Part shown: one piece after another, positions 49,405 to 62,955 of the stretch
Layout: each line of letters opens with the position of its first letter
Position numbering within the stretch: the first letter of the stretch is position 1
Assembly: GCA_951406725.2 (NCBI GenBank)
Contig: OX597825.1
Span: 44,206,001 to 44,270,000 of the forward strand
Origin: Octopus vulgaris
Lineage: Eukaryota
DNA length: 64,000 bases
Reading direction: 5' to 3'
Notes under the pieces: generated by a model
Database searches by the model: none
What the model saw: only the letters and a program-made list of their open reading frames with translations
What the model was told of the DNA's origin: nothing
Position numbers and translations under genes: made by a program

Positions 49405-49830
49405 TCATCAAGTAGTTAGCGTGAAGATTTTATCCTATTTTTAAATTATAAATTTCACCGGCGTATATTCAATACTGAATTTTTATTCCAAACAAGCACG
49501 TTGTTACCGAAATGGAATTCGAAAAAGCCCGCCGTTTACATAGATGTATAAGGGGTGAACAGTTCTATATGCTACGGTGGATACGATGGTTGTTCGTCTG
49601 GTATGTTGATTTTGTCCATTCATTATAAATCTTGAATCATGCTGGCACCGATGAGTAAAGGACGCAAATACTGCGTTAATTACGAAATCACTGGTGATCT
49701 GCAGCTATATTCTGTTTTTAAATGACTTGCTTCGAGACTTGCATTCGGTACGATATGTTTATTTTGATAATTTTGACTTTAAGAGCCCCTCCTAGCGTGC
49801 GGCATTTATGTGTTATATATATTATGTGTT
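49405..49830 (+). mobile_element. HHR element family 5
   Basis: (TA)n-flanked; starts with a short inverted piece atcaagtagttagcgtgaa; HHR at 49641-49705; homologous to 62580-62955. Confidence 0.8.
49641..49705 (+). ncRNA. Type I hammerhead ribozyme (U4C core)
   Basis: gctggca-CCGATGA-gtaa...ttac-GAA-ATCACTGGTGAT-C-tgcagc; AUC site. Confidence 0.78.
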
Positions 49831-49871
49831 ATATATATAAATATATGTATATATATATATATATATATATA

Positions 49872-50687
49872 TACCGGAGTAAACACATAAATGTGAAACA
49901 AGGTGGAAAAAGAGTACTCAAATACCAGTAGTAGAGTAATATGCTTTATTTAAGCAGAGAAATTCAACAAAATCTGTACTCTGAGTTCTCGTTGCCGTTC
50001 ATCAGACAGTTTTGCTAGAATGGAACATATATATTAATTCAATCTATACTTACAAACGCTACACCTTTAAAGAATGGACTTGTTTGATTGCTTTAGAAAA
50101 ACGGTCATTTCGAGCGATAAACAAAAAGGTCAAAATATATGTATATATATATAAAATTATAAAATTATAAAATCCGAGGAAAATACCGAGAAAACCTGTT
50201 GCCGTTAATGAAGACAGTACAAATTAATGCATAGAAATTAAACCTGTTACAAATACTGCAATACATATTTATATTAAAATCCACATATATATATCAACAT
50301 ACATATTTCTGCAATACGCGCATCCTTTTGTGTATGTTGATATATATATGTGGATTTTAATATAAATATGTATTGCGTATTTGTAACAGGTTTAATTTCT
50401 ATGCATTAATTTGTACTGTCTTCATTAACGGCACTTTTTCCTCTATTTTCCTCGGATTTTATAATTTTTATAAGTTTTTATATATATATACATATTTTTG
50501 ACCTTTTTGTTTATCGTCGAAATTGACCGTTTTTCTAGGGCAATCAACAAGTCCATTTCTTTAAAGGTGTAGCTTTGTAAGAGTATAGATTGAATTAATA
50601 TATATGTTCCATTCTAGCAAAAACTGTTGATGAACGCAACGAGAAACTAGATAACAGATTTTGTTGAATTTTCTGCCTTAAATAAAG
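49872..50687. mobile_element. Fold-back HHR element, family 6
   Basis: Inverted arms ~49944-50303/50331-50687; HHR-like motifs at 49974-50009(-) (ctgt-CTGATGA-acggcaacga-GAA..ctcagagt-a-cag) and 50624-50657(+). Confidence 0.8.
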
Positions 50688-51166
50688 TATATATATATAT
50701 ATATATATATATATATATATATATATATATATATATATATATATATATATTTATATATATATTATATATATAACACATAATATATATAACACATAAATGC
50801 CGCACGCTAGGAGGGGCTCTTAAAGTCAAATTATATATATATATATATATATATATATATATATGCATACATACATACATACATACATACATACATACAT
50901 ACATACATACATACATACATATAAACACACATTCACATATATAGTAAATAACTGATGCAAATTCAATTATATATAAAGTAAATTACTGGATATACCCCAG
51001 AGTTAATTTCTGGGTGGAAAATAATCTCTGCTGCTACACCAGTAATTTACCTCACAGAACTAACGGTCGAAAATATGTCAAAATATGTCAAAAATATACA
51101 AATCAATACACCTAATTTAGATATAGGTGTAATAAGTGTCTTTAAATACAATTTCGCTGTGGTGGT

Positions 51167-51221
51167 TAAAGTGGTGATGAGAGTATACTAACACTTGAAA
51201 CGACACTCCAGTCGTCCCTTA
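51167..51221 (+). ncRNA. Hammerhead ribozyme motif with C3G substitution
   Basis: aagtg-GTGATGA-gagt atactaac actt-GAA-ACGAC actcca GTCGT-C-cctt; lies in a (TA)n-flanked segment at 50940-51315. Confidence 0.65.
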
Positions 51222-51478
51222 CTGTGAATTTGCATTAACACTGACAGACGTTTACGACTGTTTCTAACAAAGCTAATTAATTTATAGCTACTGCAGTGAT
51301 GGGTAGGATACATCCATTATATATATATATGTATGTATGTATATGTATGCATATATGTATATATATATTAGAAGAAATGAGGTAATCAGAAGATCGGATG
51401 GTTCATATTTACAGATATTTATTTATATATTACAATTTTTACATATATATATCATATCATTCAGATCATATCATTCAG

Positions 51479-60653: not shown

Positions 60654-60659
60654 TACATT

Positions 60660-61700
60660 GCTGCTGTGACTAAAGCCAGAAATACAAAATAGTACTTCCG
60701 TAGACTCCGGCAAAAATGGAACTGAGAACTGTCTGCATTTAACAAGATCGTATCTCACAATGCTTTTGCGGTGCTAGTGCTAGTACCAACATTTGAGATA
60801 TTGGACTGGATACTTGACAAGATCTATATTCTAGACATCAAAACTAGAAAGGTACTGACCACCACTGGTAACTTCCACAGTAACAGCGACACCGACAGGA
60901 TCTATGTGAGACAAAGTGATGTTAGTAGAGGTATAAGGTCAGTCCAGACAACCCTTGAATATTGCATTGTATCACTCAGACAACACCTGCTGAACAGTAA
61001 AGAAAGAAATGACAACGTTCCATTGCATGCTCAAAAGTGAGAGCAATAACAGCTTCGGAGTTGGAGAAGAACTACTGTGCAGGTAATCTGAGAAAACAGA
61101 GGCAACTGGATTGGCCTACCCATACAGAAGCTTGGATGAGAAGAAGGTATAACACGAGCAAAAAGTAATGCATGGGTGAAGATATTAACAGCATTGATAG
61201 GAAGAGTAGCCTCTTCTTGAACTCTGATAGCTATATTACATCCCACCTAAGGATATGCCTTCGCTATTCAAGAACAAGAGATAGCTACTAAATATCTGAT
61301 AAACAAGAGGAACAAAGATACGATTAAACGTCGGCTCTGCTATACCAATGTGAAAGATATCAACTAGATCATCAGCAGTTACCCCAAAATGTCTACCAGA
61401 TAGTACCTGCCCAGGAGGCATGATATATTTGTAAATAATATTTACAATGCTATCCACAGGAAGGACATCCTGAAGTATACATCAAAGGCATGCCAGAACT
61501 AGCATGTATTCACACCTTTAAAAACAAGGAATATTGATGGAACACTCCAATAAAACCAGCAAGACAGGAAATAAAAGTCATACACTGTTATAGAGGTCAG
61601 CTCCGTAGCCGATGTGAATGTACAATCAAAAGTTCAGGAAAAAGAGAAAAATTGTGGTGAAGTAATGTGAAACTTACAGCTCTTGTACCCTTTATAAGTT
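60660..61700 (+). pseudogene. R4/Dong-like non-LTR retrotransposon 3' remnant
   Basis: ELSAFNKIVSHNAFAV...LDIKTRKVLT...HSNSDTDRIYV...RG; GYAFAIQEQEIATKY; degenerate CRLC...H...CP...RHD zinc knuckle. Confidence 0.78.
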
Positions 61701-62250
61701 ACAGAGAGAAAGCTACTATGGACAACTCATAGTTTAATAATAACTGTATATATATCGTAATAATATATATTCCCCGATTTGAAGCGACAATTTTTAAATA
61801 CAAATGACCGAAAATGATGAGCTAACCTTAGCCAGAATCGGACCCACAAATCAACGCTTACACGACTCCTTGCGCATCCGAGTGGGCCAAATTTAATCAA
61901 TATATACTTAAACTGTCTTCCACAGTTGCTTTCTCTCCGTAACTTACAAAGCCTTTCTAGTTTGTTTACGAATATTATATGTACTATTAGTCAGTATAAG
62001 TATATTCATTAAATCTGGTTGAAATTGATGGGTGAGTGTTTGGCGCATTCGGATGCGCAAGGAACCATATTAGCGCTGATTTGTGGATTTGATTCTTGCT
62101 GGGGTTAGCTCATCATTTTCGGTCATTTGTTTGTATTTAAAAATTGCCGCTTCAAATCGGAGAATATATATTATCTTACAGTTATTTTACTAAGAACCTT
62201 CCATAGCAGCTTTCCCTCCGTAATTTACTAAGCCTTTCTGGTTTATTTAC
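61695..62250. mobile_element. Fold-back plus ~280-bp permuted repeat element, family 8 (no intact HHR core found)
   Basis: Diverged inverted arms ~61695-61890/62039-62230; 61918-61969 is repeated at 62198-62250. Confidence 0.7.
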
Positions 62251-62579
62251 ACACACACACACACACACACACACACACACACACACACACACACACACAC
62301 ACACACACACACACACACACACACACACACACACACACACACACATATATATATACACGCACGCGCACGCACGCACACACACACACACACACACACACAC
62401 ACACACACACACACATATATATATATATATATCCATTTCTATTCATTTTTATAATTTAATATATACTCATGTAACTTGTAAAGTGTTTTCCTCTGCAAAA
62501 TTGGGTATTAAACTGTGGAACCAGAGAAAGATTGGATGTTTTCATCCTTATTTTCCCTGGATTATACATAAATATATAT

Positions 62580-62955
62580 TATTTATATTGAGGGCATTAC
62601 TATACATAAATGCCATACGCTAGGAGGGACTCTTAAAGTCAAAATCTACCAAAATAAATAAGCACATAGTATCGAATACGAGGGAATGCAACTCCCGAAG
62701 CGAGCCCTTTAAAAACAGAATTCGGGCTCGCTTCGAGAGTTGCATTCCCTCATATTCGATACTATGTGCTTATTTATTTTGGTAGATTTTGACTTTAAGA
62801 GTCCCTCCTAGCGTGTAGCATTTATGTGTAGTAATGCCCTCAATATAAATACATTATATTTAAGAGGAAAATTGATGGAGAATTCTCTTTATGAGGTTTT
62901 CACGCTAACTACTTGATAAATTCTTATAAAGATTTTATCCTATTTTTAAATTGTA
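62580..62955. mobile_element. Fold-back element, family 5, second locus
   Basis: ~128-bp inverted arms 62580-62707/62724-62851; shares ttttgactttaagag.ccctcctagcgtg and gattttatcctatttttaaatt with 49405-49830. Confidence 0.85.

Follow-up and report, generated by a model that had tools for sequence, protein, structure and literature searches.

The DNA analyzed here, referred to as the window, is a 64,000-nucleotide (nt) stretch of the Octopus vulgaris genome (contig OX597825.1, positions 44,206,001 to 44,270,000, forward strand), within which all coordinates below are counted. It is AT-rich animal DNA with many microsatellites, fragments of LINEs (long interspersed nuclear elements) and palindromic insertions. 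Its repeats include family 5, a short non-coding family represented by copies A, B and C, of which A and B are permuted fragments of one unit with a predicted hammerhead ribozyme motif. The unit is divided here into block X (3' of the predicted ribozyme cut), block Y, block Z and the hammerhead, in the order X-Y-Z-hammerhead.

Layout of the family 5 copies

Copy A (49407–49811) has the order (TA)n, a 19-nt inverted head, the end of Y, Z, the hammerhead, X and again (TA)n. The head (49407–49425, minus strand) borders on (TA)n to the left and matches 62899–62917 in block Y exactly in reverse complement. The end of Y follows on the plus strand (49424–49450); it equals 62929–62955 and runs into Z at site e (49450), a continuity of Y and Z that is also seen in other copies. 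Block Z (49451–49640, plus strand), the non-coding body between site e and the hammerhead, has stops in all six frames and is tiled by overlapping contigs from other copies. The type I hammerhead motif occupies 49641–49705 on the plus strand, with the core at 49648–49654, stem II at 49655–49683, GAAA at 49684–49687 and a palindromic stem III at 49688–49697; the predicted cut lies after C49699. Block X begins at this cut (49700–49811, plus strand) and stops 20 nt short of a further site, d, a common outer end; (TA)n follows directly after 49811. The preliminary description of this locus had copy A begin with gattttatcc, which is slightly off: the real start is the 19-nt inverted head, which it did not mention.

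Copy B (62580–62955) consists of a TA-rich flank, an inverted X arm, one linker base, X, Y and (TA)n. Alignment to copy A places the inverted arm (62722 down to 62580, minus strand) from +9 after the cut to site d, beyond which the (TA)-rich flank begins, and the direct arm (62724–62849, plus strand) from +24 to site d at 62849. The direct arm is prolonged by a one-sided tail of 106 nt (62850–62955, plus strand), which completes block Y between sites d and e and is followed by (TA)n. Copy C (50791–50830, minus strand) is an inverted local duplicate of 49772–49811, identical at 40 of 40 positions; it encloses the palindrome of another family, P, and runs on into a mirror of the microsatellite flank of copy A (50755–50790). 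TA-rich repeats adjoin all outer ends of the three copies.

Several matches identify A and B as pieces of one unit. Block X of copy A (49709–49811) matches the inverted arm of copy B (62721–62604) at 78%, and 49743–49813 matches the direct arm (62754–62829) at 84%. The end of block Y, 49424–49453 in copy A, agrees with the end of copy B (62929–62958) at 28 of 30 positions, next to the exact 19-nt inverted match; the scores of these two matches, 50 (direct) and 38 (inverted), are reached by none of 891 other 71-nt pieces of the window (best 32 direct and 31 inverted). A chance AT-rich similarity or a one-off chimera, in which the 30-nt overlap is accidental and the loci are unrelated mosaics, would draw on the shortness and AT-richness of this overlap and on the likeness of only 78–84% in X; it is scarcely credible in view of the 891 control pieces, the adjoining inverted match and the recurrence of the same Y–Z junction in five contigs of an independent run, and it is refuted by the contig loose ends described below. 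The claim that the two copies are circular permutations of each other is thus borne out, the motifs quoted for them lie where the preliminary description placed them, and no single linear consensus free of redundancy is colinear with the copies.

Closure of the unit and its hammerhead motif

The window was compared with contigs of four public runs (from four studies, of 24 listed runs), which were aligned on 49405–49815 at 80% likeness; contigs were the only material used from these runs. The numbers aligned per run are 835, 526, 1173 and 115, and most are 80–95% alike, corresponding to many variant copies. Five contigs of run X2 carry a 24-nt end before 49424 whose sequence occurs in the window only at 62905–62928, and therefore Y runs into Z in other copies as well. 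At the opposite end, loose ends lie behind 49811 and 49813 in 33 and 24 contigs of run X1, 22 and 18 of run X2 and 47 and 32 of run X3, respectively; among the 24 rows listed of 397, their first letters, 15–19 nt in the median, match the start of Y, and AT-rich sequence comes next. Site d (62849) is accordingly a common outer end, where the loose ends turn AT-rich and the inverted arm of copy B ends. Overlapping contig pieces tile 49426–49813, and thus the order seen in copy A is family-wide.

The unit that closes in this manner is 487 nt long with block X of copy A and 504 nt with that of copy B, i.e., about 490–505 nt, and has stops in all frames and no long reading frame. Its geometry is 149 nt from the cut to d, 106 nt from d to e and 249 nt from e to the cut, so that the preferred outer ends lie about 149 nt after the cut (d) and 106 nt further (e). 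A circular or tandem monomer had been proposed for these copies. The self-closing unit is supported by the passage of Y into Z in contigs and of X into Y in loose ends, whereas a circle and a tandem array cannot be separated from DNA; one family-5 hammerhead is present in the window. Summed contig depth is about twofold higher over X than over Z, a figure which does not represent copy number and was not used; likewise, run X11 is RNA by guess only and was not used as evidence of expression. Exact-pattern scans of metagenome contigs and viral contigs gave no family 5 match.

Family 5 carries a predicted type I hammerhead ribozyme motif, for which self-cleavage is a prediction from sequence. A type I descriptor finds it at 49648–49699, as one of 6 hits in the window compared with a mean of 0.35 in 40 shuffles. 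The type I order of the core CUGANGA, GAAA and NUH is present, H17 being C or A in contigs, and all 21 proposed pairs of helices I, II and III are valid. Core position 4 of copy A (49649) is C, in place of the canonical T, whose share of the summed contig depth is 81–100% across the four runs. Helix I is improved by two other changes that most contigs carry. The five listed changes at paired positions of helix II still allow pairing, which for one pair requires that two changes occur together (138 further rows are outside this list). The ribozyme of copy A is a decayed version of the motif. Elsewhere in the window, a single type I hammerhead at 24418–24483 has a canonical core and a palindromic helix III; its near-core letters resemble those of family 5, and its flanks do not align.

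Rod-like folding of family 5 RNA was also considered and is unsupported: copy A (z −0.28) and the direct arm of copy B (z −0.15) fold no better than shuffles, versus z −3.4 for the unit of a look-alike family, Q.

Breakpoints, look-alike families and the mode of insertion

Family Q (44576–45652, both strands) serves as an internal control. Its non-coding unit measures 471 nt, and each arm contains an intact hammerhead (cores at 45371 on the plus strand and 44781 on the minus strand); the direct arm comprises 1.2 units, and the inverted arm extends from d to d, i.e., one unit plus 4 nt. The geometry of Q is close to that of family 5, with 152 versus 149 nt from the cut to d, 102 versus 106 nt from d to e, and a unit of 471 versus 487–504 nt. 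Two short motifs just before d and e are common to both families; for the 10-mer before e, 0.42 occurrences are expected in the window outside the satellite and 6 are observed, five of them in families 5 and Q. Family Q folds back at d, 323–339 nt upstream of its cut, with a 3-nt microhomology at the junction, and a self-primed fold-back is possible for this family. One lap around a circle would produce such a one-unit inverted arm, of which this is a single case; Q is the best local candidate for a circular template.

In the palindrome of family P (49857–50687), both arms contain a minimal hammerhead that is decayed; the one-sided extension measures 87 nt, and the fold-back lies about 300 nt upstream of the core. 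It is inserted at the 3' end of copy A (49753–50848), and beyond its right arm the left flank recurs in inverted orientation, identical at 75 of 76 positions and including 40 nt of family 5. This inverted, not direct, duplication of target DNA suggests that fold-back synthesis ran into the flank. Further palindromic insertions lie at 12218–12476, 4923–5427, 45837–48421, 55245–56247 and 61695–62227, and a relaxed search revealed no convincing hammerhead in these five; the first of them, which has TA flanks and is extended by about 60 nt on one side, is reminiscent of PLE-type insertions (PLE, Penelope-like element).

The inverted arm of copy B had been reported to stop about 9 nt short of the cut, which was taken as support for an RNA 5' end set by the ribozyme. 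The distance is confirmed: the arm aligns to 49709 of copy A, leaving 9 nt missing after the cut, and with the base carried by nearly all contigs at 49708 it reaches that position, leaving 8 nt; the direct arm starts at the equivalent of 49723 (+24). In the contigs, six opposite-strand inversion joints have one end at −28, −8, −5, −4, +13 and +62 relative to the cut and the other at 49511–49566. For four of the six, this end is no more than 15 nt from the cut (P = 0.014 relative to the whole aligned stretch and 0.037 relative to the part downstream of helix II; P = 0.04–0.10 with a 30-nt window), the windows having been picked after the data were seen. The list of joints is small, is without arm orientation (head to head is assumed) and is possibly biased, as all six bracket the poorly covered helix II and none is of the type of copy B. 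Three of the four near joints lie 4–8 nt upstream of the cut, inside stem III, and share no letters at the joint. In addition, one contig joins Z (49613) to exactly 49700, and one contig piece stops aligning at 49699, with 43 other letters beyond. Copy A reads through the cut, as do six of the 32 listed contig pieces with at least 31 letters on both sides (2677 further pieces are outside this list).

These positions bear on a strict ribozyme model, in which the motif is active in vivo and the main template is a monomer that extends from cut to cut, with a 5' end acting as a hard stop; copies that cross the cut would then arise via re-ligated circles or a jump to the RNA 3' end. The stops of the arms of copy B at +9 and +24, the two contigs that break exactly at the cut and the modest clustering of joints would follow from it, as would the canonical core in most contigs, the pairing-compatible changes in stem II and the inverted arm of Q, which is one unit from d to d within 4 nt. 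Circles have been shown for retrozymes of coral, mussel and axolotl (PMC7229834). However, the predominance of upstream positions among the near joints weighs against a cleaved 5' end, because such an end cannot template them without a jump or re-ligation; the enrichment weakens with the wider window, and in families Q and P the fold-back is about 300 nt away from the ribozyme. Moreover, ribozyme mutants of a lizard PLE insert normally in vitro, with no RNA-seq reads beginning or ending at the cut (PMC11167929), and minimal PLE hammerheads cleave poorly (PMC4209133). The strict model is therefore considered unlikely. A fold-back at the cut is not general, given families Q and P, and the arm of copy B at +9, by itself a single data point, weakly supports an RNA 5' end there. 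A preferred stopping zone around the ribozyme accounts for the data better than a hard RNA end does, and the earlier claim that the ribozyme sets the RNA 5' end is weakly supported.

The reading preferred here, to which a probability of about 0.65 is given, is that copies A and B are permuted fragments of the non-coding unit that were likely copied into (TA)n by the reverse transcriptase (RT) and GIY-YIG nuclease functions of an autonomous PLE, from tandem RNA or a re-closed RNA circle passing the ribozyme site. The permuted order, the unit length, the hammerhead motif, the ends d and e, the head-to-head inverted arms and the (TA)n flanks are observed. On the best reading, family 5 works like a non-autonomous PLE derivative resembling the retrozymes without long terminal repeats (non-LTR retrozymes). 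Its insertion architecture has an adjacent, head-to-head inverted, 5'-truncated copy and a (TA)n target; a one-sided extension is present, at 106 nt in place of 30–40 base pairs (bp), and the unit holds no open reading frame (ORF) of an autonomous PLE. An ORF with RT and GIY-YIG domains lies at 52742–54115 on the minus strand and has a C-x4-CxxC linker of the Neptune type; its named relatives include bivalve mollusc proteins and proteins filed under marine bivalve symbionts.

In the proposed mechanism, both target strands would be nicked and primed, and copying would start inside the RNA at d or e, by analogy with the lizard PLE PAc in vitro. Each complementary DNA (cDNA) would run back toward the ribozyme, often stalling in or near its fold and often passing it, and the two cDNAs would then be joined head to head; the ribozyme region might thus be a frequent, not obligatory, stopping place. 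In copy B, a short cDNA begun at d may have ended at +9 and another, begun at e, at +24; its arms are assigned to two cDNAs because neither contains the other. Copy A may combine a cDNA that extended through the ribozyme and covered about 0.8 of the circuit with another, 19 nt long, whose priming site lay 11 nt upstream of the end point of the first. This would require a template continuous across the cut, whether provided by a tandem left uncleaved, by a circle or by a jump from one RNA end to another, and the permutation would follow from internal start sites on a redundant template. Twin priming is known from L1, and the geometry of copy A is similar; our literature search found no PLE paper on twin priming.

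A pure self-primed fold-back was considered for copy B and rejected, since its inverted arm begins further upstream than the direct one, which in turn extends 106 nt past the inverted arm. The PLE ORF of the window has frameshifts on the minus strand (52742–55310), and its N-terminal part (about 54697–55240) is on the plus strand, head to head; this 5' inversion shares the non-overlapping geometry of copy A.

Several observations weigh against a PLE-driven origin from a redundant short unit. Target-site duplications are not clearly found at the family 5 copies, whose flanks are microsatellite, those of copy B sharing only an 8-nt TA-rich word. Family 5 shows no similarity above shuffles to the flanks of the PLE ORF or to 15 other repeat regions of the window (none above z 3.5), and thus no helper is tied to it. 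The 106-nt tail is about three times the published length. Rfam gives no hammerhead match in family 5, at the gathering score or up to E 10; it also misses the intact hammerhead of family Q, indicating that the search has low sensitivity for these motifs. Folded as a hammerhead, the motif of copy A (−13.3 kcal/mol, with one pair open) is less stable than in its predicted minimum-energy fold (−20.6 kcal/mol). Taken as a whole, the regions from d to e of families 5 and Q resemble each other no better than shuffles do (the score is reached by 226 of 1000), so that homology is not shown and the kinship of the two consists of geometry and two short motifs. No family-5 dimer or whole unit is seen, and no contig among those listed spans the aligned stretch. 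Finally, the 49-nt middle of Y (62850–62898) is seen in copy B only and is the weak link of the unit.

The last point is what would be expected if the copies were instead pseudo-LTR fragments of a full-length autonomous PLE, kilobases long, with an internal deletion in copy B having removed the ORF between 62850 and 62898. Most PLE hammerheads are single motifs in truncated copies (PMC4209133), and the ORF begins near the hammerhead in known PLEs, in keeping with such an origin. In contrast, X and Y have stops in all frames, block Y from 62899 on is confirmed by the inverted head of copy A and by the loose ends of run X2, and copy B ends at e, which is the normal end of the long arm in family Q, 102 nt after d, where the unit is visibly short. 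Fragments of a long element are hence improbable, more so than the strict ribozyme model, and the short redundant unit is preferred.

Other repeats of the window include a 46-bp satellite (13597–22096, about 184 copies with 82% matches) and a 184-bp unit in 2.6 tandem copies (1435–1918), which has dispersed relatives at about 21–249, 30582–31031 and 32682–32886. A LINE-type ORF on the minus strand (41663–44407) encodes an apurinic/apyrimidinic (AP) endonuclease and RT in 914 codons without a stop, and a related LINE copy, 67% identical, starts at 63035 on the plus strand and runs past the window end (63035–64000).

Family 5 among PLEs and retrozymes

Metazoan non-LTR retrozymes (PMC7229834; bioRxiv 10.64898/2026.07.22.740005) resemble family 5 in having a short, non-coding, AT-rich unit with one type I hammerhead and no ORF. 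The unit length of family 5 is within the range of 51–972 bp of the 2026 preprint and slightly above the 150–450 bp of PMC7229834. These retrozymes, whose circles were shown in animals in 2020 (PMC7229834), are argued in the preprint, which lists invertebrates as not examined, to be non-autonomous PLE derivatives; their monomers and fragments are dispersed, as are those of family 5. Unlike them, family 5 has PLE-type inverted arms and a one-sided tail, which are undescribed in the available parts of the two sources, and a run of two consecutive hammerhead units is unseen in the window and in the short contigs, family 5 being known here from DNA alone. Membership among retrozymes in the strict sense, with tandem ribozyme units and circular RNA, is not established.

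The endonuclease (EN)-bearing PLEs Penelope/Poseidon and Neptune share with family 5 the 5' truncation, the inverted adjacent copy, an arm offset of about 15 nt, the one-sided extension, partial tandems, a hammerhead in the repeat and the (TA)n target (PMC8557442; PMC3846280). Partial tandems, an adjacent inverted copy, a one-sided tail of 30–40 bp and a bias for (TA)n are standard for PLEs (PMC8557442), and a 15-bp arm offset and circularly permuted copies are described in a rotifer (PMC3846280). Family 5 differs in the lack of an RT/GIY-YIG ORF in the unit and in the length of the extension, which is 106 nt (102 nt in Q and 87 nt in P) compared with 30–40 nt. A circular template for PLEs was suggested in 2014 (PMC4209133). 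The metazoan PLE hammerheads with a small palindromic helix III are, like that of family 5, of type I, with a short helix I and a G10.1–C11.1 pair (PMC4209133).

The Poseidon element PAc of Anolis is a close parallel; it cuts and extends both strands of AT-rich DNA in vitro, with RT starting at two internal sites downstream of the cut that match two genomic ends, and cleavage by the ribozyme is not needed (PMC11167929). The start sites of PAc lie about 90 nt or more after the cut and 30–40 nt apart in the ORF, whereas those of family 5 would lie at about 149 and 255 nt in non-coding sequence. No RNA ends at the cut were seen for PAc (PMC11167929), whereas the genomic breakpoints of family 5 are modestly enriched around it.

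Family 5 is real and is largely explained by known PLE and retrozyme biology, and permutation as such is no surprise in elements of this kind. Unusual are the tail, about 100 nt long, and the one-unit inverted arm of family Q; a modest enrichment of breakpoints near the cut is also of interest. Our literature search found no such family described in cephalopods; Repbase and Dfam were outside that search and may list it, and the supplements of bioRxiv 10.64898/2026.07.22.740005 may list related families. A bolder and rather doubtful interpretation is that the copies record hammerhead cutting of a PLE in vivo and that a re-closed circle is the real template, copy B having stopped at the cut end and copy A having lapped the junction, with joints piling up there and Q representing one lap. 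If this is true, families 5, Q and P would together form a group of PLE parasites in molluscs, marked by tails about 100 nt long.

The role of the PLE hammerhead is disputed, as cleavage and circles have been proposed (PMC4209133) whereas cleavage is unneeded in vitro (PMC11167929). A short, multi-copy family in which breakpoints can be counted relative to the cut is a cheap test bed for this role, and family 5 links retrozyme-like units with PLE-type insertion scars in an invertebrate.

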